Position numbers and translations under genes: made by a program. Below the pieces are notes generated by a model. It searched no databases. It had not been told where the DNA came from and worked only from the letters and a program-made list of their open reading frames with translations. Positions 9,896 through 56,640 of a stretch of DNA of 64,000 nt are shown here, piece by piece; the stretch's first letter is position 1, and every line of letters begins with the position of its first letter. The stretch is taken from positions 1 through 64,000 of the IMG/VR virus record IMGVR_UViG_3300035703_000009. One strand, given 5' to 3'. This stretch comes from a virus.

Positions 9896-10179
9896 TGAGA
9901 GCAAAGAACTTCGATCAATACTTAAATGAAGTGCTAGGAGCAAATTCGATGGAAACCGACCCATTGGACTTAATCTTACGTCCAGACATTATTAGGCCCA
10001 ACCCAGTGACTTTGGGAGCTGGCTCAAGCTCGACAATACCTATGCATTGGAACAACTCACCATTTCTATCAGGAAGCAGGCTGACCAGTGCTTTTGGAAT
10101 AAATCCAAAGGCTCCGACTAGAAAGAAAGCATTACGCTTCCATGAGTTCATAGGAGCAGTTAAGAAGCTCACTAAATAA
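9895..10179 (+). CDS. hypothetical protein (94 aa)
   Basis: ORF coupled to the upstream gene by an ATGA overlap. Confidence 0.4.
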   Translation: MRAKNFDQYLNEVLGANSMETDPLDLILRPDIIRPNPVTLGAGSSSTIPMHWNNSPFLSGSRLTSAFGINPKAPTRKKALRFHEFIGAVKKLTK

Positions 10180-10190
10180 ATAATAAAAAG
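10175..10190 (+). promoter_or_regulatory. T4-late-like promoter motif AATAAATAATAAAAAG
   Basis: Exact copy of the recurrent 14-mer, 6 nt upstream of the ATG at 10197. Confidence 0.55.
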
Positions 10191-10196
10191 AAGACC

Positions 10197-10562
10197 ATGG
10201 CATACGTCTCAAACTTTAAGAAATTCATCAAAACAGAAGAAAAGAAAACGACTGAAACTGGTGCGAACCCATCAATAGAGGAACAGGTTACATCGACTGA
10301 ACCTACTACTGATACTCCAGACACGAATGCTGCTCAGACCGAGACTCCGGCTGCTCCGGCAAGCGTAGAAGCAGATCCTGCGGTTGCAGCAGCTCGTCAA
10401 TCAGTCGCTCAAGCTATCGCAAATCGTGATAAGACGGTAATGGCAAAACAGGCTGAACTAGATAAACTAAAGACTGATCAGAATAACTTGGTTAACACAG
10501 CTAACACTAACTTAAATAAAGCCCTGCAAGACGCAGCTAAAAAACAAACAACTCAAGCCTAA
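10197..10562 (+). CDS. hypothetical Thr/Ala-rich protein (possible virion/internal protein)
   Basis: 121 aa. Low-complexity TTETGANPS...TETPAAPA region. Preceded by the late-promoter motif. Confidence 0.5.
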   Translation: MAYVSNFKKFIKTEEKKTTETGANPSIEEQVTSTEPTTDTPDTNAAQTETPAAPASVEADPAVAAARQSVAQAIANRDKTVMAKQAELDKLKTDQNNLVNTANTNLNKALQDAAKKQTTQA

Positions 10563-11005
10563 TGGAACCCGTAAAGTCATACTCTGAGTTCGTCAACGAA
10601 GGCACCAAAGAAGTGGTGTACCCTACCAACTTTAAGGGCATGGTACAGAGCACACTAGCCAGCGTTTATACATCAGTGATGGCGATTGCCCAGGAACTAG
10701 CTAACGAAAAGGCAGCTCGTAATCCTTCGCGATATACCGGCACTATCGAGGAAGTTGACATCACCAGAGCGTTGAACATGATCTTTCACAGCGACTGGAA
10801 AAAGAAGCTAAAGCAGAAGGCCCTAGGCCAAATGATGTTAAAATCGGCGGAACGCGCCGGCAAGCAGGACGCAGTCGTCGCTAAGAAGAATCAACGTGCG
10901 ATGGGTAGAATGCTTGGAGACAAGAAATTTAACCTGGAAGTCGATAAACAGAGCGTTCGTTTTAGCGACGAACGTGGAGGTTTTGGACCCGGCTCAAACC
11001 AATAA
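10562..11005 (+). CDS. hypothetical protein (147 aa)
   Basis: ORF coupled to the upstream gene. Confidence 0.5.
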   Translation: MEPVKSYSEFVNEGTKEVVYPTNFKGMVQSTLASVYTSVMAIAQELANEKAARNPSRYTGTIEEVDITRALNMIFHSDWKKKLKQKALGQMMLKSAERAGKQDAVVAKKNQRAMGRMLGDKKFNLEVDKQSVRFSDERGGFGPGSNQ

Positions 11006-11011
11006 AGAGAA

Positions 11012-11746
11012 ATGACTGAACATGAACTCATACGCGACATAAACGACGAGATCACCTTCTCAGGCTCTCTACCTTACTCTTTGCCAGAAAGGGAGATCAA
11101 ACGTATCCTTACTAACGATTCTAGGTTCTTTTGGGACAATTGGAGACACGCAGTTGAGAGTAGATACTTACTCTTACCGACTGAGTTATTTGATACTCCA
11201 CAGTTCAAGAAGCATCGCCAGCTTCAACTACCAGATTGCGTGCAGTTCGTGGTAGACTTTAAAGAGGCCAAGGGTGGATCGATCTTCGCAACAATAGACC
11301 GCGACTTCTCAGAACAAAAATTTATTGGTTCCGAGATCTACTTGACCCCATTCATCGGCGAGAGCATCATGTATCGTACTGTGATCTTCTCATTTTTAGA
11401 CCTAACTAAGGGTCTAATGCTCGATACTATCGCATATGACTATAATAAGAATACCAAGATGCTTGGAGTATTAGGTAGGACTCCAAAGACTAATGCAGTA
11501 CTTAGGATCTATAAAAAGCTAGAACAGGAGAAGCTCTTTGAGGACGAACTCTTTCAGAGATATGTGCGTGCCCATGCAAAGGTAAGACTATCTCACATGC
11601 TACAGACATTTAACTATACCTTACCTGGAGACGTCACTGTGAACTATGCTAACATTGTCACCACTGCTGAAAAGGAGATGGAAGACGTTAAAGCTATGAT
11701 GAAAGGTGAGAATACGCCGGATTGGCTGTACCTTTATCATCAATAA
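11012..11746 (+). CDS. hypothetical protein (244 aa)
   Basis: Intact ORF in a same-strand cluster. Confidence 0.5.
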   Translation: MTEHELIRDINDEITFSGSLPYSLPEREIKRILTNDSRFFWDNWRHAVESRYLLLPTELFDTPQFKKHRQLQLPDCVQFVVDFKEAKGGSIFATIDRDFSEQKFIGSEIYLTPFIGESIMYRTVIFSFLDLTKGLMLDTIAYDYNKNTKMLGVLGRTPKTNAVLRIYKKLEQEKLFEDELFQRYVRAHAKVRLSHMLQTFNYTLPGDVTVNYANIVTTAEKEMEDVKAMMKGENTPDWLYLYHQ

Positions 11747-11755
11747 TCTATTAAA

Positions 11756-12133
11756 ATGCCACAAATTAGAGACTTTTACTTTAGAGACCAAACTGATCCT
11801 GCTTTTAGAGCTGACCAGCTAGAAGTATACGATAGCTTAGAAGAGACTCTACAGCAGGTGAAGATGACTCTGTTTACTCGTAAGGGCGAGGTGCTCGGCG
11901 AACCTAACTTTGGGATCGATGTTGAGAAGTATCTCTTTGAGTTTACAGTAGACCCTTTTTCCCTTTCTAAAGAAGCGACTGACCAGCTCAACACATATGT
12001 TGGTGAAGGTCGCTCTCGCAATATCACGACCCGCCCTGCAACCTATAAAGATTCCAGAGCTGGTCGTGAAATTTTCGTTCTTCTAATTGATATTCCTGAA
12101 TTGAAGAATCCTCTTTCTATTTTTTACGATTAA
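11756..12133 (+). CDS. hypothetical protein (125 aa)
   Basis: Intact ORF. Confidence 0.5.
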   Translation: MPQIRDFYFRDQTDPAFRADQLEVYDSLEETLQQVKMTLFTRKGEVLGEPNFGIDVEKYLFEFTVDPFSLSKEATDQLNTYVGEGRSRNITTRPATYKDSRAGREIFVLLIDIPELKNPLSIFYD

Positions 12134-12135: not shown

Positions 12136-13845
12136 TTATAGAGCGCCTGCGCCTTTAGTTTCTCCGCCTTCTATGGTCTCAGCTCCTGCGGCAGGCTGTT
12201 CTGCTGTTGCTGCTGGTGCAGCAGCTGATGCACCTCCTCCTGCTGGAGCAGCCGCTTCTGATGCTGCAGCTTTTTCTTCAGCTGCCTTGCTCGCATCGAT
12301 CCAGTGTTTGTTAGAATCAATTTCGTCAGCAGTTAACCTTAGTTCTTTTCTAATGAGGTATTCGGTTGAGAAATATGGTGTACCATCGTCCTTCATGATT
12401 CCTTTCTTCGCAGTAAACGAAGCGATTCTCTTGGATTCAAGCTCATTCTGCTTCATTTCTTCAAAGACGTTATCGTTATTGAAAGTTATTCCAAGACCAT
12501 TACCGAACTTATAATCAGTCGCAAGATCAGGAAAGTCTAGGCACATCTGCAGGTAAAAAGGTTTAGTAATTAGTTCGGCAAAGACCGTACGCAGACGTCG
12601 AACGAATTTCTGATAACGAATCTCCTCACGAGTGATGCCCTCAGCGTTTAGCGTGAAGGCCCCCATACCGCTCTGTCCTTCCCAACGTGAGTAAGGAATC
12701 TTGGAGTCCATCTTCAGTTTCTTATAGAAGTAGTTTAGCAATTCAGAACCAGATAAGTTTGGGCCAGGCCATTGTAGAGGTTCGATCTTTACTTGTTGGT
12801 TCTGGTCATTGACTGGTAGCACATAGTTCTTATAGAACATCACGTTCGGCTTGCCCTCAACGCTCAGCTCACCAGTGTCACCGTTAAAGTAGATGTCCTC
12901 CTTAAGCAAGTTCATGAACTCTCTAACGTCTTCCTGACTCTTCTGTAAGCTCTTAGAACCAATCGGCACAGTAGTCGTCAGACGAATCGGTGCGTTCATC
13001 ACGTGCCAAATTACTTTGCTGTGTTCGATGATGCGTAATAAGTTAAAAGACCTGATCAAGCGCTCGGTGAAAGAGACGCGTTTGGTCCTAAAGTGGTTTG
13101 AGTAGGAAAGGTAGATGATTTGTGAGTCGTTTAGCACTCTAGTCGAACCGTTTGACTGGTCGTACTGTACCCATTGCAAGAATAACTTGCCCTTAGCATC
13201 CTTTTGTAACTGAGGAGCTAGACTCACAGGATCAAGCTCTTTAAAGCCGATGATCTCGGTAGGTTTCTGTAGGTTGTCATACAGAATCTCAAAGGCCAGG
13301 TGACCCTCAACCAGGAACTGGAAGGCGTACTGCCATGCCGTGATAGCTGTGTCAAACCCCCAAGCTGTATAGATCTTCTCAAAGTTCTCGTTGTACTTGG
13401 TGACAACCTTTTCTTGATAGTTTAGACGCTCGTCCTTAGTATTACCTTGATAGATCATCTTACCGGTAAGGTCTCGGCTGTAACAAAACCTGTTCTCCTC
13501 GTCATAGACGATCATGTCGTCGACGATGGTTTCGAGAATGAATTCAATCTCGCCATTGGCCGCAACGTCACGTAGTCGTTCACGCTTGACAGCATAGTCC
13601 AATTGGAAAAAGGCGATCGCTTTGGTCCTCAGCTGGGAGGTAGTATCGGCGATTGCCATCGAAAACTTGAGCAGGTCTGAGCTGTCTGCGCTAAGCTTGT
13701 TTGAGCGAGCTGCGATCTGGCTCTCGATGAAGCCGATCGCCTGTGAGTTTTTTAGGAGAAGGTCCTCGTATCGAGTGCCGAACTTACTAAGTCCTTCAAG
13801 CGCTCCTCCTGCTCTGTTTTTACGTACGTCTAAGAATCCTGCCAT
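12136..13845 (-). CDS. gp20: portal vertex protein (T4 gp20-like)
   Basis: 569 aa. The EEIRYQKFVRRLRTVFAELITKPF segment resembles T4 gp20 [22 protein letters not shown]. Ala-rich C-terminal tail. Lies adjacent to a gp4-like gene. Confidence 0.5.
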   Translation of the reverse strand: MAGFLDVRKNRAGGALEGLSKFGTRYEDLLLKNSQAIGFIESQIAARSNKLSADSSDLLKFSMAIADTTSQLRTKAIAFFQLDYAVKRERLRDVAANGEIEFILETIVDDMIVYDEENRFCYSRDLTGKMIYQGNTKDERLNYQEKVVTKYNENFEKIYTAWGFDTAITAWQYAFQFLVEGHLAFEILYDNLQKPTEIIGFKELDPVSLAPQLQKDAKGKLFLQWVQYDQSNGSTRVLNDSQIIYLSYSNHFRTKRVSFTERLIRSFNLLRIIEHSKVIWHVMNAPIRLTTTVPIGSKSLQKSQEDVREFMNLLKEDIYFNGDTGELSVEGKPNVMFYKNYVLPVNDQNQQVKIEPLQWPGPNLSGSELLNYFYKKLKMDSKIPYSRWEGQSGMGAFTLNAEGITREEIRYQKFVRRLRTVFAELITKPFYLQMCLDFPDLATDYKFGNGLGITFNNDNVFEEMKQNELESKRIASFTAKKGIMKDDGTPYFSTEYLIRKELRLTADEIDSNKHWIDASKAAEEKAAASEAAAPAGGGASAAAPAATAEQPAAGAETIEGGETKGAGAL

Positions 13846-14481: not shown

Positions 14482-14982
14482 TTACATGTTATTGAACAGA
14501 AAGTTTTCGGTGATGATACCAAACTTCATGTTTTGACTCAACGCATACGCTTGAGCGGCCTTAAACTTTGCAGTATTGATGATATACATCTTCGCATGAC
14601 GCGCATAGTTTAATGTCTGTTTTTCAGTGAGCCGAGTAGGAGGCTCAGGTGGAGTCAAGTACTTGTTGGGTTTGATCTCGATAAGCCACTTCGTCACAGA
14701 ATCATCCTGGTTCCTCGTGCACATATAACAGTCGATCCAATATGTACTCTCCTTTTTGAGAATCGGATTAAAGTAAGGGATCCCGTGAGGTTCTGAGGCA
14801 TACTCAAGGACTCGGATATGATTGTCACAGTACTCTAAGAACTTAAATTCCCAGCTAGAACGATAGATGATCTTAGTAAGGTCTCCCTTGTACTTTTCTG
14901 GGTTCTTGGGAGTAAAATAACCCTGACGAACTCTGCCGTTTTGCGGCTTGAGAAAATCATGGATGTCCTTTTTAGCTTTCAT
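14482..14982 (-). CDS. gp4: head completion protein (T4 gp4-like, PD-(D/E)xK fold)
   Basis: GYFTPKNPEKYKGDLTKIIYRSSWEFKF and WLIEIKP motifs match the gp4 family as recalled for T4 and cyanophages. Confidence 0.55.
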   Translation of the reverse strand: MKAKKDIHDFLKPQNGRVRQGYFTPKNPEKYKGDLTKIIYRSSWEFKFLEYCDNHIRVLEYASEPHGIPYFNPILKKESTYWIDCYMCTRNQDDSVTKWLIEIKPNKYLTPPEPPTRLTEKQTLNYARHAKMYIINTAKFKAAQAYALSQNMKFGIITENFLFNNM

Positions 14983-15000
14983 ATAGGATTATTTATCCAA

Positions 15001-15030
15001 AAATAAAAATGGAGCCGACTTGGGCTCCAT
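15001..15030 (-). terminator. rho-independent terminator (minus strand) downstream of 15052..15363
   Basis: Hairpin atggagcc-gacttg-ggctccat, followed on the minus strand by a T-run (an A-run at 15001-15009 on plus). Confidence 0.55.
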
Positions 15031-15051
15031 TCAGTTATCTGTGAGTTAGGC

Positions 15052-15363
15052 TTAACCTACGTTGTCTGCGATGAATTGGTCTGCGTCCTCTGGGCCGATT
15101 TTGCCCTGCTCAACGAGCTTTAGGATTAGTGAGGCAATCGCCAGCTTTTCAGGCACTGCGTCCTCGTCGATCTCTACTTCATTACGTTCGAAAGCGGCGA
15201 CTAGGTCCTCGTGAGCTTCCTTTGCGGCAGCCTCAACTTCTTCTTCAGAACCAACTAGCTCAACCAGTTCGTCCAGCATTTGAGTGTCTAGGTCGAGCGC
15301 ATTTTCCTCATCCGGATTGGCACCAACCACATAATTTTCATCGAGTCTAAGTAACTTAACCAT
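15052..15363 (-). CDS. acidic hypothetical protein (103 aa), late-expressed
   Basis: Asp/Glu-rich. Late-promoter motif lies 9 nt upstream on the minus strand. Confidence 0.5.
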   Translation of the reverse strand: MVKLLRLDENYVVGANPDEENALDLDTQMLDELVELVGSEEEVEAAAKEAHEDLVAAFERNEVEIDEDAVPEKLAIASLILKLVEQGKIGPEDADQFIADNVG

Positions 15364-15371: not shown

Positions 15372-15387
15372 GTTTTTATTATTTATC
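15372..15387 (-). promoter_or_regulatory. T4-late-like promoter motif (reverse-complement GATAAATAATAAAAAC)
   Basis: Exact 14-mer in minus orientation, immediately upstream of the start at 15363. Confidence 0.55.
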
Positions 15388-18109: not shown

Positions 18110-18125
18110 ATAAATAATAAAAAGC
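18110..18125 (+). promoter_or_regulatory. T4-late-like promoter motif AATAAATAATAAAAAG
   Basis: Exact 14-mer, 8 nt upstream of the ATG at 18134. Confidence 0.55.
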
Positions 18126-18754: not shown

Positions 18755-19523
18755 TTACATGGCAAAAACAAGAGGACGCAGAGAAAAAGAAGAACTAGAA
18801 AATCTCGATGACTGGGACAAGAAAAACATCGCTGATCGTATGAAGGCGAGTTTTTCCCAAAAGATCGATATTAAGTGTAAGTCTAACGCACAAAAAGAAG
18901 TTCTTAATGCTATTGAACAGAATTTTATCACCATTATCACTGGTCCTCCAGGCACAGGTAAGACTTACTTATCTTGTGCAAGAGCTCTAAAATACGTAAA
19001 AGATCACAATGAACCCTATCAAAAGATAGTGTTAATTAAATCAGTTAATGTGCCAAAGGACGAGGAGATCGGTTACCTAAAAGGCACTCTCGAAGAAAAG
19101 ATGGAGATGTACATGTACCCGTTCATCTCAAACTTTCACAAGGTCATCGGCAAGACTGCAACCGAAGAGCTTAAGGCTAATGGAGTGATCGAGATCCTGC
19201 CGATCAAGTTTGCGCTTGGAGTCACTCTTGATAACTCGATCGTGCTCATCGACGAGGCTCAGCAGATTGCAAAGGATCACCTTCACACGCTCTCAACCAG
19301 AATAGGAACTAATTCTAAAATGATCTTCCTTGGGGACATCAAGCAAAAATCAGTCAATAAATCCCAAAAGAGCGCGCTGGAAATACTAATGGAACACTTT
19401 GACGGGCACGAAGGAATAGGTTCAGCGAAGCTAGGAGTCGATGACATAGTGCGCCATCCAATCATAAAAACTCTTGAGGAGATCTTCCAAAAGATAGAAG
19501 ACGCCGAGAAGCTTAATAAATAA
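18735..19523 (+). CDS. phoH: PhoH-like ATPase
   Basis: ITGPPGTGKTYLS Walker A, LIDEAQQ Walker B and a GDIKQ motif, typical of PhoH. Confidence 0.8.
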   Translation: MQLKYTNYMAKTRGRREKEELENLDDWDKKNIADRMKASFSQKIDIKCKSNAQKEVLNAIEQNFITIITGPPGTGKTYLSCARALKYVKDHNEPYQKIVLIKSVNVPKDEEIGYLKGTLEEKMEMYMYPFISNFHKVIGKTATEELKANGVIEILPIKFALGVTLDNSIVLIDEAQQIAKDHLHTLSTRIGTNSKMIFLGDIKQKSVNKSQKSALEILMEHFDGHEGIGSAKLGVDDIVRHPIIKTLEEIFQKIEDAEKLNK

Positions 19524-19527
19524 CTCT

Positions 19528-19872
19528 ATGAAAACATTCGTTCACTCTTTTAATTCTTTTTCTCTTAATGAGATGGCAATCAAGTCTCGAGAAGAAATGT
19601 ATCGCCCTGAAAAGATCGAGATCGATCTTTCTGGTCCAGAAGGCAACGCTTTCTACCTCATGGGTTTAGCTAGAAAGTTATACCGTCGAAAATATCCGGA
19701 GCAAAAGGAAGGATTTAACGTTTCTCAAAAGCTTGCCAAAAAGTTCGATCCAGAGATGGAACTAAAATCGGCTGAGGAACTTTTTATGGAGGAGATGATG
19801 AGTGGCGATTACGATCACCTATTAAAGGTGTTTGATGATGAGTTTGGAGACATGGTAACTTTATATCGATAA
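19528..19872 (+). CDS. hypothetical protein (114 aa)
   Basis: ORF with AATAAATAACT motif variant immediately upstream (19515-19525). Confidence 0.45.
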   Translation: MKTFVHSFNSFSLNEMAIKSREEMYRPEKIEIDLSGPEGNAFYLMGLARKLYRRKYPEQKEGFNVSQKLAKKFDPEMELKSAEELFMEEMMSGDYDHLLKVFDDEFGDMVTLYR

Positions 19873-22572: not shown

Positions 22573-22588
22573 CTTTTTATTATTTATC
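22573..22588 (-). promoter_or_regulatory. T4-late-like promoter motif (reverse-complement GATAAATAATAAAAAG)
   Basis: Exact 14-mer in minus orientation upstream of the start at 22562. Confidence 0.55.
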
Positions 22589-23778: not shown

Positions 23779-23786
23779 TTTGCCTT

Positions 23787-23802
23787 AATAAATAATAAAA
23801 AA
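23787..23802 (+). promoter_or_regulatory. T4-late-like promoter motif AATAAATAATAAAAAA
   Basis: Exact 14-mer, 10 nt upstream of the ATG at 23813. An extended 20-mer CCTTAATAAATAATAAAAAA recurs at 52846. Confidence 0.55.
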
Positions 23803-26360: not shown

Positions 26361-27932
26361 ATGAAGTATACAGAACTCGAAGAAGCTGACATAGATTACA
26401 TTTCTGAAATCTATTTCAACAAGGAAATTTCATGGGATCAGCGACTTCGCATGCTCTCTGAACGCTATAAAAGATCTGAGCGCACGATTCAACACTGGAT
26501 CTCAAAGCTAGGATTTAGCACCAAACAACAAGAAGAATCTCCGCAGCTGATCGCTGCCAAGTCCCGAGAGCTAGATCGAAGCAAATCGAAGTTCATCATC
26601 ACCTGGGCACAAAACAATACTGACGTTCACGAAAGGTTTATCACCAACCTAGAAGCATATGCTGCTGAGCTGGATGCCAGCATTCACGTGATTGCAGGTA
26701 GATACAAGAACCCAACATCTGTGTTTACCGATCGCAAGTATGACGTATGGTCAGACCGAATCGAAAGGTACTTGGACGCGAATCGTCATGATGTGCATAA
26801 GTACGTCTCAATCATGTCTGACGTGAAGATACAGCCGACTGCGGTCGATCCGATGACGGGCTTACAGGGCATGAGCGGTATCAATTCCTGCGTTTTTGGT
26901 TCGCCTAAGGTGCAGATGGAAATGATCCCAGTTTTGACTGGCAACAGACCAAAGATGATGGTAACTACTGGCGCATGCACAGTGAAGAACTACACCGACT
27001 CAAAGGCCGGTAAAAAGGGCGAGTTTCATCACACTCTAGGATTTGCCATCATTGAGATCAAGGACGATGACACTTTTTTCATAAGACAAGTAACAGCTTC
27101 AGATAACGGAGACTTTAACGACCTATACTTTAACGTAAAGTACTCTGAAGGTGAGGGTAAGAGCTCAATTAGTCGTAACTCATCGATCGCTGCACTAGTG
27201 TTAGGCGATCTACACTATGGTCAACATGATCCTCAAGTATTAGACCAATCATTTAACCTGATGGCCAAGTTAAGTCCCGATCACGTCATCATCCACGACG
27301 CGTTTGACGGAACCTCAATCAACCATCATGAGACCAAGGACCCATTTGTCCAATACCAAAAGGAAATGGCTGGCACAAACTCGCTAAAGAAGGAGATAGA
27401 TGCCTTGTTGCTTGGCCTTGAAGACTTTCAAGACTATAACGTGGTCATCGTTCGCAGCAACCACGACGACTTCATCGATCGTTGGTTAAAGGACACCGAT
27501 TGGAGAAAGACTGTCACCCCAAAGAACTCTCTCGAATACATGCAATACTCGGCAGCCATACTAAGCGGCCAAGCTCCAAACGGAGTCATTCCATACCTGA
27601 TCAACCAAAAGTTTCCTCACTTTAAGACACTAGGCAGAAACGATAGCTACCTGGTGAAGGGCTGGGAACTAGGTCAGCATGGAGATATCGGTTCGAGCGG
27701 AACCAGGGGATCGCTATTACAGTTACGCAAGCTCAACACCAAGATAGTGGTAGGCCACTATCATGCTCCAGGCAGAAAAGACGGTGCTTTGTCAGTTGGA
27801 ACCTCGACCAAGCTTCGCCTAAACTATAACCTAGGCGCTAGCAGTTGGTTACAGTCTCACGTAATCATCCATCAAGACGGAAAAGCACAACACATTAACT
27901 TTATTAACGGCGAATTCACTACTCTAGAATAA
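26361..27932 (+). CDS. calcineurin-like metallophosphoesterase with N-terminal HTH-like region
   Basis: LVLGDLHYGQHD (GDxHG), VVIVRSNHDD (GNHD/E) and later GQHGD / VVGHYH motifs. Confidence 0.55.
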   Translation: MKYTELEEADIDYISEIYFNKEISWDQRLRMLSERYKRSERTIQHWISKLGFSTKQQEESPQLIAAKSRELDRSKSKFIITWAQNNTDVHERFITNLEAYAAELDASIHVIAGRYKNPTSVFTDRKYDVWSDRIERYLDANRHDVHKYVSIMSDVKIQPTAVDPMTGLQGMSGINSCVFGSPKVQMEMIPVLTGNRPKMMVTTGACTVKNYTDSKAGKKGEFHHTLGFAIIEIKDDDTFFIRQVTASDNGDFNDLYFNVKYSEGEGKSSISRNSSIAALVLGDLHYGQHDPQVLDQSFNLMAKLSPDHVIIHDAFDGTSINHHETKDPFVQYQKEMAGTNSLKKEIDALLLGLEDFQDYNVVIVRSNHDDFIDRWLKDTDWRKTVTPKNSLEYMQYSAAILSGQAPNGVIPYLINQKFPHFKTLGRNDSYLVKGWELGQHGDIGSSGTRGSLLQLRKLNTKIVVGHYHAPGRKDGALSVGTSTKLRLNYNLGASSWLQSHVIIHQDGKAQHINFINGEFTTLE

Positions 27933-27943
27933 ATAACTAAAAG
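27927..27943 (+). promoter_or_regulatory. late-promoter-like motif variant (GAATAAATAACTAAAAG)
   Basis: Same variant as at 7772. Overlaps the stop codon of the upstream gene. Confidence 0.35.
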
Positions 27944-29874: not shown

Positions 29875-29890
29875 AATAAATAATAAAAAG
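29875..29890 (+). promoter_or_regulatory. T4-late-like promoter motif AATAAATAATAAAAAG
   Basis: Exact 14-mer, 11 nt upstream of the ATG at 29902. Confidence 0.55.
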
Positions 29891-44366: not shown

Positions 44367-44376
44367 CGTAGTTCAT

Positions 44377-46204: not shown

Positions 46205-46868
46205 TTTTTACCATTTTTTGATTATTTATCGTTTTTTTAGTTAAGTGCTTAGTATTTTTGATAAAACGATCTATTATGAAATCGTAATTTACTTCTTTTT
46301 TTTCTATGTCGCTATGTCCTGGAATCTGAATAGCAGCTAACGGATAGCTACCGAAACACTCAAACTTACTTTGAACATTTTTTGCGAGCCATACATCAAT
46401 TATTTCGATGTTATTATTTTCAAAAGCATGCAATATAAAGTCAAATATTGTAGAATTATACGCTATTGCGTGTGCAGCATAACAGTTAGTTATTTTTAAG
46501 AGGTTTGGGCTCACTTGACTAAGTGAGGAATGACTATTATATCCAAGGTAATAGAGAGCCCAATGAGTCCTCTGTAGCTGATCTATCGCAGGAGGAATAA
46601 AGTTAATATTCATTAGTTCAAAGTCATCTTCGAAGACCAAAACATTTTTTAAGCCTAATGCTTTTGCTCTTTTGATTGTTTCTATGTGAGAAAGTAGACA
46701 GCCTTGACGACCGTTGCCGTCTGGAGGAACTATGCCTGAGAGTCTCTCAACGCGATCAGCTATTCCTAGCTGGTTAAAAATAGTCAACGCTCTAGCTAAG
46801 CGATCTGGTCTAGAATCTAAATTAATTAAGTAAATCTTTTGAAAATAATTAAATGCTTCCTTTATCAT
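46173..46868 (-). CDS. GT25-family glycosyltransferase
   Basis: IYLINLDSRPDRL and VFEDDFEL motifs. Confidence 0.5.
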   Translation of the reverse strand: MIKEAFNYFQKIYLINLDSRPDRLARALTIFNQLGIADRVERLSGIVPPDGNGRQGCLLSHIETIKRAKALGLKNVLVFEDDFELMNINFIPPAIDQLQRTHWALYYLGYNSHSSLSQVSPNLLKITNCYAAHAIAYNSTIFDFILHAFENNNIEIIDVWLAKNVQSKFECFGSYPLAAIQIPGHSDIEKKEVNYDFIIDRFIKNTKHLTKKTINNQKMVKNEQNFDNRSR

Positions 46869-48195: not shown

Positions 48196-49052
48196 AAAGA
48201 ATCGTATATTTTAGTAAATTCGTTTACTATTGTTTGAGGATGCCAGTGTTGTTCCATCCAACTCCTACTTTCCTTTCCTTTTTCAAGAATAAAATCAAGA
48301 CCGGCATCGACTATTTTGTTTAGTTCCGTCTCAAGGGAATTGATCCAAACGTTGAAAAAAGGAGAAACTTGAGCACCAGAGGAAGAGAGTAGTATTTTTT
48401 CAACGTCTGGAGAAAGAGAGCATATTGTGAGTTTGCCAAGTGCAAGTCCTTCTAAACCTGATCTATGATAGCTTGAAGTAACGCACTCATCTATAATTAT
48501 GTTGCATTTTGATTTGCGAGCAATACAAGCATCAAGAGAGACTCCAGTTATCACATCAATTTCTACAGAGGTGCCATACTCTCTTTTAATCTTGTTAAGT
48601 ACTGCAAGAGTCTGATCATATCCCTTATCGTGCCACTTACCGAGTTTTTTTGTTCGGCTTGGAGAAAAACCTATTTTAATTGCATGTGAAACCTGCTGAG
48701 AAGAATATTGCGGAGTTGTGAAGTCAATCACATTTCTAACTATTGAGCAGCCTGAATACTCTGGCAGAGTTGCATGATATTGAGAAATTACTAACTTGCG
48801 GTCAACTCGGCTTTTTAGGTCTACTTGAAAAGGTTCGCTATGGTATTGCAAAACAGTTTTGATCCCATGCCGATTGCCAGGTAAGAGATTATGAGCATGT
48901 AGAATACTACCTGCTGGGAAGGCACGCATAGCCGGTGCACCTAATCCTGCCATCTCGCATCGATAGCCTTGACCGAATTTATTGATGGCTTTAGCTAATT
49001 CTAAAGGAGCTTGAGCAATAGGTGTTTGTCTATAGTGATAAACTATTTTCAT
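48192..49052 (-). CDS. hypothetical protein (286 aa), possible glycosyltransferase
   Basis: Embedded in the glycosyltransferase run. No motif recognised. Confidence 0.3.
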   Translation of the reverse strand: MKIVYHYRQTPIAQAPLELAKAINKFGQGYRCEMAGLGAPAMRAFPAGSILHAHNLLPGNRHGIKTVLQYHSEPFQVDLKSRVDRKLVISQYHATLPEYSGCSIVRNVIDFTTPQYSSQQVSHAIKIGFSPSRTKKLGKWHDKGYDQTLAVLNKIKREYGTSVEIDVITGVSLDACIARKSKCNIIIDECVTSSYHRSGLEGLALGKLTICSLSPDVEKILLSSSGAQVSPFFNVWINSLETELNKIVDAGLDFILEKGKESRSWMEQHWHPQTIVNEFTKIYDSL

Positions 49053-49055
49053 TAT

Positions 49056-50513: not shown

Positions 50514-51151
50514 TTTACTTGATCTAAGTCTTTTTGAGTGTCGACGTCAACTACATCTTCGATCGGGTAGAACACGGTAGACGGGCCGTACATATTCTTA
50601 TTTAATTTATAGAGAGCAGAAGCTCTAAAGATGCACATGTAGTGACTGATCTCAAAGCACTTTGGATAGTCTTGGCGTCGGTATAGATCGTGTTCAAGTA
50701 AAGGCTTGCCGAAAACGCCGTCTGCTCCATGCTCCTGTAACATGAGATAAGGTGAGACTTTAAGTTCCTTCTTACATAGCATAGAATCAGCAAGACCTAA
50801 GTCAGCAAACTGACAGTAATATTCATAAGCCGCGTAAATCTCTTTCCAGGTCCTCTCTGGATAGGTTAAGTAGAGCATTATTACTTCAGCAGACATGGGA
50901 AGCCCGACGTTTTTTACGGCGTGTTGCATCACGTCCCGAATGTTAGCAGAGTCGTCTGATAGTTCAGAAGGACGATCGATTGCACAACACCCATGCTTAA
51001 TGGCTAACTGAAATATCTCAGGGTCGTCGGTCGTCACAAAAACACGTCTACGAAGAGACTCTGGAATCGAGTCTATTGTCGCTTTAAAAAGCTTACGGTT
51101 CTTAAAGGGTAGGCCCTTGGAACCCAGTCTGGCTGGAATGATGATGTTCAT
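50501..51151 (-). CDS. neuA: CMP-nonulosonic acid synthetase (NeuA-like acylneuraminate cytidylyltransferase)
   Basis: MNIIIPARLGSKGLPFKNRKLF matches NeuA/KdsB IIPARGGSKGIxxKN. Confidence 0.75.
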   Translation of the reverse strand: MNIIIPARLGSKGLPFKNRKLFKATIDSIPESLRRRVFVTTDDPEIFQLAIKHGCCAIDRPSELSDDSANIRDVMQHAVKNVGLPMSAEVIMLYLTYPERTWKEIYAAYEYYCQFADLGLADSMLCKKELKVSPYLMLQEHGADGVFGKPLLEHDLYRRQDYPKCFEISHYMCIFRASALYKLNKNMYGPSTVFYPIEDVVDVDTQKDLDQVKWIR

Positions 51152-51765
51152 AGTTGATCGAACTCTTTGAGAGTTATTTTTGGAATCTGTAGGTTACTAG
51201 ACTCGCTCAAGTTGTAAAAAGATACTCCGCGCCTTTCAAGCTCAGCTCTAAGCTTTTGATAAGCAAGATTGACCTTAGTCAGGTGCTTAGTCTTAACGAC
51301 ACTGTGCGCTCCATCCTTGGGATTATAAAAGTGCCCGTCTGTAAAGTCGACACCAATAACGCCGATGTGTTTTGCTCCCAATCGATACGCTAGGCAGACC
51401 GCACAATACGGCGAATTCAAATAGTGATCGAGATGGTTCTTTTTATCTAGACAAGTCAGCTCTCGAGTACCTAACTCAAAATAGATTAGGCTAGTGTGTC
51501 GCCAGCCCCTGGCGCAAGTAAAGAGGTGTTTTGACTTTGACTGTACTACTAGGTCCTTGCGTTTACCGACAAACCGTAATGGGCTGTCTGTGACTAGTAA
51601 ATAGGTCGGAGTAAAAAGGGCCGGCACGTCGTTGACTCCGATCGTGGTGTATCGTTCCGCATGTTCAGCAAAGCCCAGCAGAGAAGTGCCACAGCCACAG
51701 ACTATGATCTTTTCACCTGAATGCGGACGGTCAATGTCCTTAAGAGATTTGATTAAGCTAGACAC
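51148..51765 (-). CDS. hypothetical protein, possible Maf/DUF115-like glycosyltransferase
   Basis: KIIVCGCGTSL resembles the xIxGNGPSL motif of Maf/Cst-II-like enzymes. Weak. Confidence 0.25.
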   Translation of the reverse strand: MSSLIKSLKDIDRPHSGEKIIVCGCGTSLLGFAEHAERYTTIGVNDVPALFTPTYLLVTDSPLRFVGKRKDLVVQSKSKHLFTCARGWRHTSLIYFELGTRELTCLDKKNHLDHYLNSPYCAVCLAYRLGAKHIGVIGVDFTDGHFYNPKDGAHSVVKTKHLTKVNLAYQKLRAELERRGVSFYNLSESSNLQIPKITLKEFDQL

Positions 51766-51830: not shown

Positions 51831-52826
51831 ATGGATCATTATTCAACCCTTGGTGTCTCTAAGAACGCAACAGACGATGAGATTAAAAAAGCCTATCGTC
51901 AAATGACGTTAAAGTACCATCCCGACAGAAATCAGGACGATCCAGGAGCGGCTGACCAGTTTAAGAAGATAGCGGCTGCTTATGAAGTGTTAAGCGATTT
52001 AAAAAAGAAGGCAGAATACGATGGAGCTGCACAAAAGGCCTCACATGACTGGAACTATAACTTTAACGACGATTTTACCACCTTTTCAAATAACTTTAGG
52101 AACTCAGAGTTTAGAAGAAAGTCAAACGAACGTGCTAGAGCCTCACAGGGCAAGACCCACATGGGTCCAGTCGATACTTCATACTTGGACATCAATTTAA
52201 ACTGTGAAATCGATTTTAAAGAGACTGTCTTGGGTAAAAAGGTCGACATCACGTTTACTCGCAAAAAAATCGTCTATACTGGAGCGGCTGGCAACTTACT
52301 TAAGTACGTCAAAGAGGACGAAGAGAAGGAGATCAAGGTAAACTTTGACTTGCGTAAAACCTATTTACAGATCAAAAAGGAGGGACAAAACTATGTGGCT
52401 AAGGTCCGAGTGAGTAAGTTCGGTAACGAGGACGTCTCAGTAAGACCCAACATCTGGGGAGACATGGAGCAGTATCCTCTTACTGGAGAGTTATACATCA
52501 CAGTAACTATCATTATGCCTCCAGGAGTCGAACTTGAAAACAATAACATCATACACAGGGTTGAGATCCCACTATATAAGGCAATCATACCTGGAGAAAA
52601 AGTAGAGATTGAGACCGTCCTAGATAAAAAATATGAGGCTGAGATCAAGAGCCCAACTCACCTAAACGATCTTAAGCTAGTGATTAAGGAACAGGGCATA
52701 GCCGACTCATTTGGCACGATCGGTGATTATATCGTTAGATTCTCCATACTGGCTCCAAGAGTTGCTGATTTTAGTAAATCCAAAGTAGAGAGTTTGCGTA
52801 CAATATTGGTTGACTCCGGCGCATAA
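51831..52826 (+). CDS. J-domain (DnaJ-like) protein
   Basis: N-terminal [53 protein letters not shown] carries the HPD motif. The remaining 260 aa lack DnaJ zinc-finger motifs. Confidence 0.75.
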
Positions 52827-52850
52827 CTTAAAAAATCTCCCAAAAGCCTT

Positions 52851-52867
52851 AATAAATAATAAAAAAA
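52851..52867 (+). promoter_or_regulatory. T4-late-like promoter motif AATAAATAATAAAAAAA
   Basis: Exact 14-mer, 10 nt upstream of the TTG start at 52877. Flanked by complementary aaagcctt / aaggcttt arms. Confidence 0.55.
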
Positions 52868-52876
52868 TTTAAGGCT

Positions 52877-54856
52877 TTGACAAGTACAAATTTAAGCTTC
52901 AATGGAGACAATCAGGACTGGGTCCTTATTGTTGAGAACATCGGCGAGACACTGGCTCAAGTCAAGTCTGGCGAAAACAACTCAGTTCTCGAAGGAGTCT
53001 GTGCAGTATTCGGCAGAATGAACAACAATCGCCGCGTTTACGAAAAAGAAGAATATTTACCCCACCTTTCATACTTAAAGGATAAGATCGCAAAACGACA
53101 ACTTGTCGGAGACTTGGATCATCCACCTCACTTTGATGTTAGCTTAAAGAGCGCATCACACATCATCGAAGAGCTTAAATATGATGGCGGAGACAAGGTT
53201 TACATTAAACTACGTATCCTCGAAAACACTCCAAACGGAAAAATTGCAAAGGCACTATTGGATGGCGGAGTTCAACTTTCGATCTCATCCAGAGCAGCCG
53301 GTCAAGTCTTTGAAGGCGGCAAAGTAAAACTACAAAGAATCTTTACTTACGATCTAGTAGGAGAGCCTGGATTCACAGAAGCGATCCTTAGAAAAACAGT
53401 TAGCGAGTCACTTAAGCATGACTTTCAGATGATAACTGAGAGCTACAACCACCTTAAAGAGGAGTCAGTAGTACAAACTCAAAACTTGACAGACATTTCA
53501 GAAAGTCTCAATTTTTCTGAAAATTTCAAAGTCTACAAGATAAATAAAACTAATGAAGATCTAGGATTAAACTTCCAATCGTCTTCAATTCAACAAAAAA
53601 ATAAAACAACCATGGTTGAATATGTAACTAAAGATCAGATGGATCAGTACTCTGAAGTATTAAAGAACCAGTTCGCCGGTCTTAAGAAAGAAATCAAATC
53701 TCAAAAGGAGCTACTTGAGTCAGCTAACTCATCTAATCCTACTGACATTAAGTTAGTTGGTTTTGTGAATTACTTGGCAGAACAACTCGAAGGAGTTGTA
53801 AACTATGCTAACTACATTTCAGGTAAGCTTAATGAGTCGATCAAGTACTCAGAGCACGTTGCAGAGACCACTAACAATTCTATCGCGTACTCAAGCTATG
53901 TTGGTGAACAGCTAAACAAATCGATCCAACATCAAGATCACATCGCTGAAAAGCTCAACCAAACTATTAACTATTCCGAGTACATCAAGGAAAACTTAAA
54001 TAACTCAATCAAATATCAAAACTATTTAGCTGAAGAGATAGACAAAGGAATCCAGTACACTGAATACGTTGCTGAAGGCTCAAACCGCGGCTTAGAATTC
54101 TCTGACTACTTAGCAGAACAACTCAACCTTAACCGCGATTACGCAGGCTATATTGCTGAAAAGCTTGGTCAGAGCATTGGTTATACTGAGTATATCGTTG
54201 AGTCTCTAAACGAAGGCACAACTGTTGGAAGCAAACGAAACGTTCTAAACGGAGTTGAAAAACTCGATGAGTCAGTTTCAGTTGACGCTCTAATCGCTAA
54301 GGTTGACCAAGTGATAACTGAAGTAAGCGACAAGTCTTCTAAAGCGGTTCTTGAAAGCAGATACCCATTCTTAAAGGTAATGAGTGAAGCTAAAAAGAAA
54401 GCATTCTTCGCTCTTGAAACAGACACTAAACAAGCGATTGTTGAAGCCCTAAACGGAGCTATCTGGTTCAACGAAAACGATGTAGCTGGAATCATGGAAG
54501 CAGTGGTTGATCATAAGACTCAAAACCTACCAGTTCACATAAGATTTATGCCTGCTGACTACAAAGCACTATGGAACGAGATGCATGAGAGCGAAAAGAA
54601 TCGCATCCACGCTAAGTCTCAGATGTATGACATTCGTACTCCATACCAAGCAAAAGCTTTCTGGGATGAAATGGACCTAAGAGGAGTTCAAGAAAGAATC
54701 GCAATCGAAAAGAATAACACAAAAATACAAGCACAGCTCAACGAAAGCCAAAGTACAGAAGGCCTAATACCTGTAAACCAGGTGGTTGAGATGCAGAGAG
54801 GTTACTCTCAAAACTATCTCGAGAAACTCCAACGCCAGGCGGACTATCGTAGATAA
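52877..54856 (+). CDS. prohead protease (T4 gp21-like, S77) fused to a repeat-containing scaffold-like domain (gp22 analogue); TTG start
   Basis: N-terminal 190 aa carry NNNRRVYEKEEY, GDLDHPPHF and LSISSRAAG, resembling the gp21 NGRIYP, GELDHP and SSRGxG motifs. The remainder is acidic and helical with 11 tandem 14-aa repeats (xYxEYxAExLNxSI) and Gln/Glu-rich coiled coil. Confidence 0.55.
   Translation: MTSTNLSFNGDNQDWVLIVENIGETLAQVKSGENNSVLEGVCAVFGRMNNNRRVYEKEEYLPHLSYLKDKIAKRQLVGDLDHPPHFDVSLKSASHIIEELKYDGGDKVYIKLRILENTPNGKIAKALLDGGVQLSISSRAAGQVFEGGKVKLQRIFTYDLVGEPGFTEAILRKTVSESLKHDFQMITESYNHLKEESVVQTQNLTDISESLNFSENFKVYKINKTNEDLGLNFQSSSIQQKNKTTMVEYVTKDQMDQYSEVLKNQFAGLKKEIKSQKELLESANSSNPTDIKLVGFVNYLAEQLEGVVNYANYISGKLNESIKYSEHVAETTNNSIAYSSYVGEQLNKSIQHQDHIAEKLNQTINYSEYIKENLNNSIKYQNYLAEEIDKGIQYTEYVAEGSNRGLEFSDYLAEQLNLNRDYAGYIAEKLGQSIGYTEYIVESLNEGTTVGSKRNVLNGVEKLDESVSVDALIAKVDQVITEVSDKSSKAVLESRYPFLKVMSEAKKKAFFALETDTKQAIVEALNGAIWFNENDVAGIMEAVVDHKTQNLPVHIRFMPADYKALWNEMHESEKNRIHAKSQMYDIRTPYQAKAFWDEMDLRGVQERIAIEKNNTKIQAQLNESQSTEGLIPVNQVVEMQRGYSQNYLEKLQRQADYRR
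53765..54215 (+). repeat. in-frame 42-nt (14-aa) tandem repeat array inside the protease-scaffold gene
   Basis: Eleven degenerate repeats: KYSEHVAETTNNSI / AYSSYVGEQLNKSI / QHQDHIAEKLNQTI / NYSEYIKENLNNSI and so on. Confidence 0.65.
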
Positions 54857-54883
54857 TCAAAAACTAAAAAAATCAACTCAAAA

Positions 54884-56554
54884 ATGGCACGTACTAAAAT
54901 TTTCAGACGTTCAAGTGATAAGAACTTGGCCGCAACCTGGAAGCCAGTCCTTGAGAGCTATGGTGCAAATGTTGAAAAGACACCTTGGTTAGCAGAATAT
55001 GCTCACAACCACGGAATCTTCGACAACACTACTCCATTGTTCGAACAGGCTACTGCTCCCGGTCTATTCTTCCAACAACCAGCCTCTTTAGGCGGCTATG
55101 CTGGACAGATCTCCGCACCAACTAACTCGATGACTCCGTTCTCGGGTGGTGCAAAAAATGCATACGGTAACGTAGGCGACACCGTAGGTTCTGGTGACAA
55201 ATTTCCTTCATTGCTTCCTGTAGCTATCCAAGTTGCAGCTAAGACAATTGGATTTGACCTTGTTCCAGTTATCCCAATGGATTCTCCAGTAGGATTCCTT
55301 CCTTATCTTGATTACTTGTACACAGGTGGTCGTACAGATAAAGCATTTGATCCTTACATGGTAAAAGTTGTAGGAATCAACGCGAATGACTTCCCAGCTG
55401 GTCCAGCGTATGGTGATTCAATCACTGTATCTGGTAGTGGAGCTGGCGATTTCGATCTAGAATTCGTAGGCTACTCTCGTGTTGACGGTAACTTGATCAT
55501 CAAAATAGTTGCAGATAATGGCTCAAACATCATCGCTACTTCTCTTGAAGGTAACACTTTGACGATTGGAGTTGATACTTCAGCTACAGTTGATGCTGGT
55601 GCAGTACAATTAGTTTCTGCTCTTGAAAACCACATCTCTGGTTTCACTTCAGTATCTGATGATGACTATGCAAATTCTGGAAACTTTGTTGGTCCTTACC
55701 TTCCAACTACCGGAGCAGTTCCTGGTTCAATGAAGCGTGAAGCTTCTGAGCTTTCTAAGTTCCGTCAAATGGGCTTAAGAATGTTTACCAAATTCGTTGA
55801 GGCTGAAACTGATCAAGTTGCTATCTCTGCAACTGTTGAGCAGATCCAAGACCTTAACCGCGTTTGGAACTATGACGTTATCTCAATGCTTGAGAACGTT
55901 GCAGTTAACGACATCGCTCAATCAATCAACAAGCGTCTTGTAGACCGCGTGTTCACCCTTGCTGACGTTCACTCTAATGAAATCGATCTAGTTGAAGGTA
56001 CTGGAATCACTAACCTAGACTTAACTGCAGGTTCTGGTGGTTTCGAAAACATCTCAACTTTACAACGTAGAGTTGTTACCAAGATCCTTGAACTTGCTAA
56101 CTTGATCTACCACAGAGGTCGTTTCGGAGCAGCTTCTTACCTTGTTACCACAGGTCGTGTTGCTTCTGCTCTTGCAGACGTAGCTGGTTACTCAATCGCT
56201 CAAGTTCCATCTGACATGTCAACTACTGCAGGTCAATTGTACCCAGCAGGTAAAGTGTATGGCGTTCAGGTATATGTTGATCCTAACTTAAGTTGGGGAG
56301 ATACGCGTATCGTTCTTGGACGTAAGGGTGCTGACGAAGAACCAGGTGTTAAATTCATGCCTTACATCATGGCGGAATCACTTCAAACTATCGCTGAAGG
56401 AACAATGTCTCCTAAGATCGGTATGAAGTCGCGTTACGCTATCACCGAGGCTGGATGGCATCCTGAGACTCAGTATGTTAGCATGAACCTTCAAGGTCAA
56501 GACCTTGGTGTTCTAACTGGTAGCATCGCTCCACAGCCAAGCGGCACGCTATAA
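54884..56554 (+). CDS. gp23: major capsid protein (T4 gp23-like)
   Basis: ATWKPVLESYGANVEK resembles gp23 NKWKPLLEGEGLPE. AAKTIGFDLVPVIPMDSPVG resembles IPNLIAFDICGVQPMNSPTG. C-terminal GMKSRYAI resembles GFKTRYGI. 556 aa. Confidence 0.7.
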   Translation: MARTKIFRRSSDKNLAATWKPVLESYGANVEKTPWLAEYAHNHGIFDNTTPLFEQATAPGLFFQQPASLGGYAGQISAPTNSMTPFSGGAKNAYGNVGDTVGSGDKFPSLLPVAIQVAAKTIGFDLVPVIPMDSPVGFLPYLDYLYTGGRTDKAFDPYMVKVVGINANDFPAGPAYGDSITVSGSGAGDFDLEFVGYSRVDGNLIIKIVADNGSNIIATSLEGNTLTIGVDTSATVDAGAVQLVSALENHISGFTSVSDDDYANSGNFVGPYLPTTGAVPGSMKREASELSKFRQMGLRMFTKFVEAETDQVAISATVEQIQDLNRVWNYDVISMLENVAVNDIAQSINKRLVDRVFTLADVHSNEIDLVEGTGITNLDLTAGSGGFENISTLQRRVVTKILELANLIYHRGRFGAASYLVTTGRVASALADVAGYSIAQVPSDMSTTAGQLYPAGKVYGVQVYVDPNLSWGDTRIVLGRKGADEEPGVKFMPYIMAESLQTIAEGTMSPKIGMKSRYAITEAGWHPETQYVSMNLQGQDLGVLTGSIAPQPSGTL

Positions 56555-56587
56555 GCGAACCTTTTAGCTAAACTAGCTATATCAAAA

Positions 56588-56618
56588 AAGAGGACCCGTA
56601 AGTCCTCTTTTTTTGTTT
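56588..56618 (+). terminator. rho-independent terminator after the capsid gene
   Basis: Hairpin aagaggac-ccgtaa-gtcctctt followed by tttttgtttt. Confidence 0.65.
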
Positions 56619-56624
56619 TAGCGG

Positions 56625-56640
56625 GATAAATAATAAAAAC
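56625..56640 (+). promoter_or_regulatory. T4-late-like promoter motif GATAAATAATAAAAAC
   Basis: Exact 14-mer, 11 nt upstream of the ATG at 56652. Confidence 0.55.

Follow-up and report, generated by a model that had tools for sequence, protein, structure and literature searches.

The 64,000-nucleotide (nt) stretch analysed here (hereafter, the window) covers positions 1 to 64,000 of the virus record IMGVR_UViG_3300035703_000009 and carries eight exact copies of a 14-mer, ATAAATAATAAAAA. Protein-family scans of the window recovered a T4-like gene set including the gp20 portal, gp21 protease, gp23 capsid, gp4 and a gp5-like hub. The T4-type portal (Portal_T4; 12136-13845) and the gp4-like head completion protein (14482-14982) are encoded on the minus strand, and the prohead protease (52877-54856) and the Gp23 major capsid protein (54884-56554) on the plus strand. 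A gp13-like adaptor, a baseplate-wedge-like protein, a primase, a UvsW-like helicase, PhoH and a topoisomerase II were also detected. Judged from these families the window is that of a distant T4-like phage, and the T4-like premise of an earlier note on this DNA is supported.

The 14-mer is present at 10176, 18110, 23788, 29876, 52852 and 56626 on the plus strand and at 15373-15386 and 22574-22587 on the minus strand. In 100 dinucleotide-preserving shuffles it was expected 0.00 times (maximum 0), and the window has 16 matches at two or fewer mismatches against 1.8 expected, so the earlier note was right that eight copies by chance are negligible. Its coordinates hold to within one base, those at 18111, 56627, 15372-15387 and 22573-22588 each being one base off. 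All eight copies are intergenic and co-oriented with the next open reading frame (ORF), one of them overlapping the upstream stop codon, and they are followed by six ATG, one GTG and one TTG start codons. The gaps from the motif end to the start codon are 7, 9, 10, 11, 11, 12, 11 and 12 nt; the correct orientation and closeness described earlier stand, and the measured range of 7-12 nt replaces the 6-12 nt (text) and 5-25 nt (title) given there.

The first copy (10176..10189) overlaps the TAA of the ORF at 9895-10179 and lies 7 nt before the ATG at 10197, heading a run of genes (10197-12133), among them that of the gp13-like adaptor and a baseplate-wedge-like gene. The minus-strand copy at 15373..15386 stands where the primase gives way to the head genes of the same strand, 9 nt before the ATG at 15363 of an acidic ORF of 103 amino acids (aa). 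Two copies occupy divergent intergenic regions: that at 18110..18123 (plus strand) is beside a PolB fragment, 10 nt before the ATG at 18134 of a 206-aa ORF that PhoH follows, and that at 22574..22587 (minus strand) is in a 62-nt region, 11 nt before the GTG at 22562 of an operon closed by the UvsW-like helicase. The plus-strand copy at 23788..23801 is 11 nt before the ATG at 23813, and that at 29876..29889, surrounded by a weak stem (CTGCTTC..GAAGCgCAG), is 12 nt before the ATG at 29902 and heads a baseplate module that runs up to the gp5-like hub (34949-35743). The last two copies, also on the plus strand, flank the protease and capsid genes. One (52852..52865) is 11 nt before the TTG at 52877 that opens the prohead protease gene, with the major capsid protein gene next; the other (56626..56639) is 12 nt past the terminator hairpin of the capsid gene and 12 nt before the ATG at 56652 of a DUF5856 gene.

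The core ATAAATAA occurs 18 times in the window, about 14 times just 5' of start codons. The variants listed in the earlier note are present: ATAAATAACTAAAA at 7774..7787 (plus strand, 10 nt before the ATG at 7798) and at 27929..27942 (plus strand, before a 65-aa ORF with a TTG at 27946), ATAAATAATCAAGA at 9479..9492 (plus strand, 10 nt before the ATG at 9503) and ATAAATAActctATG, with core ATAAATAA, at 19516..19529 (plus strand, 4 nt before the ATG at 19528). The last of these and ATAAATAAtcctatATG (14983..14996, minus strand; the site also reads as ATAAATAAtcctat), which abuts the ATG at 14982 of the gp4-like head-completion gene (the portal gene comes next), are two core sites with a near-zero spacer, and at 19516 a near-leaderless transcript would be predicted. 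A glycan island of low guanine-cytosine (GC) content (~36-51.8 kb) has no exact copy, as the earlier note had seen, and only one copy with a single mismatch, ATAAATAATCAAAA (46216..46229, minus strand), before a UDP-glucose dehydrogenase-like gene. The motif-bearing units lie on both strands and comprise gp4/portal, protease/capsid, the gp13-like and baseplate modules and the UvsW-like helicase operon, in line with the earlier description of likely late or structural genes; the primase, PolB and topoisomerase genes have no motif in front.

To follow the motif beyond the window, four scans of viral contigs were used to collect relatives, based on the capsid protein, the topoisomerase, the portal and a left-end protein. 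The capsid scan gave 62 loci (capsid identity 51-96%, GC 26-42%), and the clade loci total 3.0 Mb, overlapping contigs included. They contain 304 exact 14-mers in 154 unique contexts, against 0.83 expected under a second-order Markov model. At 148 of the 154 unique sites (96%) a start codon within 30 nt downstream opens an ORF of at least 50 aa, with a spacer of 11-12 nt at 82 of these 148. The relaxed pattern ATAAATAANNAAAA has 190 unique contexts, 94% of them before a start codon versus 21% of random positions. A scan of all contigs for the bare 14-mer gave, among the matches listed, mostly chance occurrences in AT-rich contigs, and nothing relevant to the 14-mer was found in the searchable literature.

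Almost every capsid locus has two orthologous sites on the capsid strand, whose flanks differ among relatives. The first is just before the protease start codon, ~2.0 kb 5' of the capsid gene, and the second is 64-100 nt past the capsid stop, right after a GC hairpin and T-run; in the window these are the copies at 52852 and 56626. Such an orthologous 14-mer amid diverging flanks shows strong purifying selection on a clade-wide, sequence-specific recognition site, and the orthologous conservation excludes chance as well as a mobile repeat as the origin of the copies. A third recurrent site lies in front of a gene starting MANPVM. At L046:17688-17770 tandem boxes were observed, with an exact 14-mer 67 nt before a MANSVM gene and the variant ATAAATAAAAAAAA 9 nt before its ATG; the upstream copy, in the context 'ataccaaATAAATAATAAAAA', recurs in L306 and L318.

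Within the motif, 12 of the 14 positions are invariant (ATAAATAA-NN-AAAA) and positions 9-10 alone vary. TA is the commonest pair there (113 contexts), CT comes next (29), and AT, TT and other pairs follow. Lineage-specific versions appear in the most distant relatives, such as L061, which has ATAAATAAGAAAAA three times. At the unique clade sites the motif is preceded by A (67), G (66) or T (21) and never by C, and upstream information does not exceed ~0.56 bit per position over 25 nt. The 5' extension (C/T)(C/T)TTA that the earlier note took to be shared by several copies is therefore unsupported clade-wide, and it is not general in the window either, as CCTTA precedes only two copies, where it forms local hairpin arms.

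The invariant part of the motif contains the T4 late box, (T/A)ATAAATA, with ATAAATA present at 190 of 190 relaxed-pattern sites. In T4, late promoters consist of the 8-bp box TATAAATA at -13..-6, its first base being -13 (Geiduschek and Kassavetis, PMC2988020), with A in place of T at -13 in 9 of 50 late sites, an AT-rich segment 3' of the box and no -35 element (PMC2988020). A preceding G is no T4 variant but fits the late box NATAAATA of the T4-like cyanophages S-PM2 and Syn9 (cyanomyoviruses; PMC2984593). In the clade, the box is likewise followed by an AT-rich segment, A-(T/C)(A/T/C)-AAAA and usually more A, and has no conserved -35 element; matches to sigma-70-type promoters were not enriched in the scanned parts of the window. 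The resemblance to T4 late promoters proposed by the earlier note is thus upheld. The motif shares with T4 late promoters the identical ATAAATA, the tolerance of A at the first position, the AT-rich 3' segment, the placement before virion genes on either strand without a -35 element, and a narrow distance to the start codon. It differs from them in having 12 invariant positions out of 14 rather than 8, a first base that may be A, G or T, and a shorter distance to the start codon. The late promoters of the cyanophages have a similarly degenerate first base before ATAAATA, and both sets were predicted in silico before homologues of T4 late genes (PMC2984593); the cyanophages differ in having clear g55, g33 and g45 homologues, and a fixed 3' A-run or spacing is not described in PMC2984593.

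The surroundings of the copies also argue for a promoter. In the scanned parts of the window, the two strongest intrinsic-terminator-like hairpins lie directly 5' of motif sites: one (56584..56613, plus strand, 12 pairs and a T-run) ends the capsid gene and directly precedes the copy at 56626, and the other (15007..15032, minus strand, 10 pairs and a T-run) follows the 103-aa ORF and directly precedes the gp4-site box. Across the clade, 28 unique sites have a hairpin and T-run within 35 nt upstream. Genes that begin directly behind a strong terminator must have a promoter of their own, and the space there admits only one without a -35 element. The 103-aa ORF (15052-15363, minus strand) makes up a unit of its own, with an exact motif in front and a strong terminator behind; it is very acidic, has only a weak SHOCT-like match, and adjoins gp4, the position of gp55 in sister clades. 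It was considered as a sigma candidate because of this position and rejected, showing no similarity to a sigma factor or gp33.

From the end of the box to the start codon the clade has 18-19 nt. In T4 we found 26-28 nt at 9 of 15 sites, 27-28 nt being the most frequent distance, with all but one within 14-35 nt, and the clade distance is thus ~9 nt shorter, which is roughly the room of a Shine-Dalgarno site, a feature missing in the clade. A Shine-Dalgarno-like (GGAG-like) sequence precedes only 10 of 80 window genes, and in the motif-less window genes A makes up 50-68% of the bases at -17..-11. In Flavobacterium johnsoniae, genes that are translated well are rich in A at -14..-11, and substituting A-12 or A-13 in a reporter cuts output by ~30% each (PMC6847099). 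The lack of Shine-Dalgarno sites together with an A-rich zone at -17..-11, as in Bacteroidetes mRNAs, points to a Bacteroidota-type host. No published phage was near-identical: a 12-kb megablast query had no match among 50,697 phage records. The nearest capsid proteins were those of LR756500.1, a 462-kb uncultured phage (38% identity), and of the Prevotella Lak megaphages (32%), followed by other huge uncultured phages and by Chryseobacterium and Tenacibaculum jumbo phages (27-29%). Based on the hosts of these nearest capsid relatives and on the missing Shine-Dalgarno sites, a Bacteroidota-type host is likely.

The reading best supported by these data, and one we hold with fair confidence, is that the 14-mer is a late promoter. 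More specifically, it is probably a T4-type late promoter joined directly to a minimal leader for the initiation of translation. The segment (A/G/T)ATAAATA would be the T4 late box TATAAATA at -13..-6, read without a -35 element by the host RNA polymerase together with a gp55-type late sigma of the phage; no such sigma was found in the sequence examined. With ATAAATA aligned to T4 positions -12..-6, transcription would start at about motif position 13, in the A-run; this T4 geometry places the start inside the 3' A-run and not 6-8 nt past the motif as the earlier note had expected. The late mRNA would then have a leader of 13-14 nt, with no Shine-Dalgarno site, opening with adenines at -14/-13/-12, of which A(-13) and A(-12) would stimulate initiation on Bacteroidetes-type ribosomes. 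Such a role in translation would account for the fixed 3' AAAA and the 11-12 nt spacing. The motif would thus be a single cassette, with the box serving the polymerase and the A-run serving both as initiation site and as the 5'-terminal determinant of translation. The promoter proposed in the earlier note is kept in this reading, and the 3' half of the motif and the fixed spacing of 11-12 nt point to a second, translational role that it had not considered.

The comparison with F. johnsoniae has two sides. Adenines at -12/-13 stimulate initiation there without Shine-Dalgarno pairing (PMC6847099), and the A-run of the motif falls on -16..-12, the motif-less window genes having the same A-rich zone. 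The F. johnsoniae determinant, however, is a compositional preference in leaders averaging 33 nt, whereas in the clade the A-run would form the very 5' end of a predicted 13-14 nt leader and belongs to an invariant DNA motif.

At the prohead protease gene, the motif lies in the loop of a hairpin whose 5' arm (52843..52852, plus strand) is upstream of the predicted start site and whose 3' arm (52869..52878, plus strand) takes in the spacer together with the TT of the TTG start codon. Although their sequences change among the relatives, the two arms stay complementary (GTCTTCG/CGAAGAC, AGTCTG/CAGACT, GAGTCCT/AGGACTC and ACTTGGTCT/AGACCAAGT). RNAalifold found no consensus on the alignment of protease sites, as the arms are out of register among relatives, and the hairpin was therefore tested by duplex energies with shuffled and cross-paired controls. 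The duplex formed by a sequence's own flanks had a mean energy of -9.0 kcal/mol, compared with -3.2 +/- 0.3 for shuffled flanks and -5.6 for flanks cross-paired between relatives. A duplex of -6 kcal/mol or stronger was found in 27 of 33 distinct relatives, and for 21 of the 33 sequences no more than one partner from another relative gave a stronger duplex than the own one. No such stem is present at the capsid-downstream site, and most motif sites are without a hairpin.

This arrangement resembles that of the T4 genes e, soc, 49 and I-TevI, whose early read-through RNA is translationally silent and whose late transcripts are active (PMC3014915). In the T4 genes a hairpin buries the start region in read-through RNA and late transcripts are without the 5' arm; the same is predicted here, where the 5' arm lies upstream of the predicted start site and so would be absent from them. 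In the window, read-through RNA would fold into the hairpin burying the TTG and motif-started transcripts would be translatable, tying the synthesis of protease and capsid to late transcription as in these T4 genes. The gene e type has its promoter within the 5' arm and not, as here, in the loop between the arms, and the gene gated here would be a prohead protease with a TTG start. Directly 5' of the protease gene, the window encodes a full DnaJ-type co-chaperone with J domain and DnaJ_C (51831-52826, plus strand). A read-through transcript of this DnaJ gene would be the RNA silenced by the hairpin.

The main rival, given the tight spacing and the position of the A-run, is that the 14-mer lies within longer mRNAs and acts only in RNA, either as a strong ribosome-loading site used without Shine-Dalgarno pairing or as the operator bound by a RegA-like regulator of the phage, be it a repressor or an activator. 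The very tight spacing (11-12 nt in 82 of 148 sites) would suit such an element, the A-run falls at -16..-12, where adenines stimulate initiation in F. johnsoniae, and several copies lie between co-directional genes. The display of the protease-site motif in a hairpin loop is also common for protein-binding RNA motifs, although most sites have no hairpin and the geometry of the protease hairpin would be left unexplained. General A-richness cannot explain an invariant ATAAATAA, which is the known late box of the T4 family, and T4 late promoters are also narrowly spaced from the ATG. The sites after terminators and in divergent regions (18110 and 22574) need a promoter, with little or no room for another one. 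We therefore regard an element acting in RNA only as an unlikely explanation of the 14-mer.

A second question is which factor would read a late promoter of this kind. No gp55 was found in the window with PHROGs, run on nearly all ORFs including concatenated small ORFs, or with Pfam, nor with a hidden Markov model (HMM) of 38 homologues, and hhalign against every window ORF gave a best probability of 2.4%. The PHROGs scans of the window ORFs yielded no clamp or gp33 family, and tblastn of T4 gp55 and gp45 against the window and the capsid loci gave nothing. In the clade, the search covered about 10 kb on either side of the capsid, topoisomerase, portal and left-end genes in 16-80 relatives each; neither these loci nor the window yielded a gp55-family protein, another sigma-like domain or a phage RNA polymerase, and the 8 kb past the right end of the window had no gp55-family protein, sigma-like domain or phage RNA polymerase. 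The sigma searches covered part of a genome that is probably larger than 200 kb. Three further candidates were rejected: a 190-aa ORF 5' of a large ORF pair (guessed to be gp47/gp46-like, whose homologues follow gp55 in distant T4-like phages; hhalign 0.2%), a Cys-rich 100-aa family (36964-37266) with weak repeated HMM matches and a sequence that is not sigma-like, and a sigma-like family of 233-245 aa from L080, L126 and L573, which belong to other phage groups that are TATAAATA-rich or without the 14-mer. This last family (L080:9085-9840, L126:2283-3002 and L573:18199-18945, minus strand) has a gp55-type segment, K-x-K-A-[FY]-S-Y-[FY], and a C-terminal domain; it is abundant in viral contigs rich in TATAAATA without the 14-mer and may be a longer form of late sigma used by a different T4-like group. 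The Cys-rich family of ~100 aa (phrog_13610, of unknown function) is encoded at 36964-37266 (minus strand) in the window and, for example, at L053:811-1188 and L040:1520-1813; it is conserved clade-wide and lies near the capsid region in relatives.

Proteins of the gp55 family were found in sister clades only, and the gp55 and gp33 homologues that the late-sigma regulon of the earlier note implied did not emerge from the window or from ~3 Mb of relatives' loci. These include the nearest relatives that have been sequenced: in LR756500.1, a 124-aa ORF matches phrog_234, 'late sigma transcription factor' (E=7e-13), and in Chryseobacterium phage MA9V-2 the protein MA9V2_198 is of the gp55 family (E=1.8e-6). 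The gene order in gp55-bearing relatives is gp55-gp4-portal-protease-capsid, and the sister clades L186 (LR756500.1), L187, L196, L199 and L200 encode a gp55-family protein of 120-130 aa by gp4-portal-protease-capsid. Their box is (A/G)ATATATA, ~17-35 nt before the portal, protease and capsid genes, and among the matches listed the 14-mer was not present in the loci recruited by two gp55 alignments. Like the 14-mer, this box is TATA-like and placed before the portal, protease and capsid genes of related T4-like phages of the Bacteroidota type; it differs from the 14-mer in sequence and in its distance to the ATG, which is longer and less strictly kept, and it comes with a gp55 gene. ATATATA may be the sister clades' own late-promoter variant, and TATA-like late boxes with a lineage-specific sequence seem to be the rule in the wider group.

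The promoter could instead be read by another phage factor or a phage-encoded RNA polymerase that recognises the whole 14-mer. The missing gp55 in the window and the ~3 Mb of clade loci, the different box of the gp55-bearing sister clades and a recognition sequence that, at 14 nt, exceeds the 8-bp T4 box would suit such a reader. Neither an RNA polymerase nor another sigma-like domain was detected in the window, however, the searches reached only part of a genome probably above 200 kb, and the core matches the late box of T4 and cyanophages, gp55 being thought general in this phage family (PMC2988020). This makes another reader of the motif a rather improbable alternative. A fuller version, which we would also put among the less likely possibilities, is that late transcription in the clade does without a gp55-family sigma altogether: another factor or polymerase would read the 14-mer and start within the run of 5-6 A, giving fixed minimal leaders whose A-rich 5' ends recruit Bacteroidota ribosomes. 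These leaders might be lengthened by reiterative slippage into poly(A) heads. Slippage of this kind produces the poly(A) heads at poxvirus late promoters. Promoter and ribosome-binding site would in that case be one physical cassette. Finally, a processing site at which a RegB- or RNase E-like endoribonuclease cuts polycistronic RNAs 5' of selected genes would suit AU-rich, intergenic copies co-oriented with genes, but known sites are short and degenerate and not 14-nt invariant, the post-terminator and divergent sites and the match to the T4 box would have no explanation, and no Rfam family matched, so that this is highly improbable.

Several observations weigh against a T4-type late promoter read by a gp55-like sigma. 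No gp33 or gp45 homologue accompanies the missing gp55 in the window or the ~3 Mb of clade loci, and the sister clades that do encode gp55 use the other box, ATATATA, so that gp55 is put forward as the reader of the 14-mer by analogy only. The invariance over 14 nt and the fixed distance of 11-12 nt would be expected of an RNA-level element too. Several of the genes that the motif would drive are without known function, and the term 'late' is taken from the structural genes among them. The host phylum derives from only two lines, the hosts of the capsid relatives and the missing Shine-Dalgarno sites. The Bacteroidetes promoter motifs (-33 TTTG / -7 TANNTTTG) were marginally more frequent in the window than in shuffles (6 versus 2.2 and 70 versus 54.7), with no match convincingly placed before a gene start; the 14-mer itself does not contain TANNTTTG, the Bacteroidetes -7 element, which lies 4-5 nt before the start site. 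Of the late-promoter and gp55-like regulon proposed by the earlier note, the promoter part thus fits the T4-like phage, the core and the genomic context, and the gp55, gp33 and gp45 proteins were not found in the sequence examined.

Other features of the window concern the phage itself. An exact copy of a 252-aa protein encoded at 684-1442 (minus strand) is also present on a public contig of 0.2-1 Mb and on a 57.9-kb Logan contig; its presence on the 0.2-1 Mb contig means that the genome is probably larger than 200 kb, and the phage may be a jumbo phage or megaphage. The phage also occurs in SRR11566518, ERZ21966605 and JGI 3300043342, and two related viral contigs, IMGVR_UViG_3300025030_000041 (246 kb) and 3300034082_004296 (176 kb), may come close to complete genomes. 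No tRNAs were found in the window. The family-B DNA polymerase (PolB) ORF (16537-17973, minus strand, 478 aa; also L185:3314-4591) matches phage PolB profiles only at positions 500-841 of 856, the C-terminal half, so the gene seems to be split, with the other half elsewhere; a similarly short PolB ORF is present in Chryseobacterium phage MA9V-2.

The block at 36098-51765 (minus strand) holds ~20 co-directional genes of sugar chemistry with a GC content of 32-38% and looks like an inserted island for glycan synthesis. It encodes several GT2 and GT25 glycosyltransferases, a GT29 sialyltransferase-like protein, a CMP-sugar synthetase-like protein (CTP_transf_3), a UDP-glucose dehydrogenase, an NAD synthase and an NAD-dependent epimerase-like protein. 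Downstream of the capsid operon, the plus strand encodes a 590-aa protein (57746-59518), probably a fibre or decoration protein, in which UspA1-type adhesin repeats occur together with a beta-roll (ice-binding-like) segment. The plus-strand cluster at 22625-26296 consists of a HAD_SAK_1 protein (22625-23185), a P-loop protein (23182-23778) and, 3' of an exact motif, a 636-aa protein (24386-26296) with weak RNA-ligase and cytidylyltransferase-like matches, and is reminiscent of an RNA-repair cluster.

The mechanism proposed for the 14-mer is in its principle well known, and what is most likely new is the combination, in a widespread clade of uncultured phages, of an extended, invariant T4-type late box with a minimal leader that has no Shine-Dalgarno site. 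For this large clade of T4-like phages, which has no cultured member, ATAAATAA-NN-AAAA with a predicted start in the A-run is a testable promoter definition for use in annotating late regulons, operons and true start codons on metagenomic contigs, and the 14-mer can serve as a signature for recruiting fragments of the clade's genomes. The hairpin at the protease gene would extend the principle of T4 gene e, translation from the late transcript only, to a head-assembly protease in a distant lineage. More generally, the motif suggests how T4-type late promoters may have adapted to hosts that ignore Shine-Dalgarno sites, with a leader shortened by ~9 nt and an A-run that doubles as a determinant of translation.

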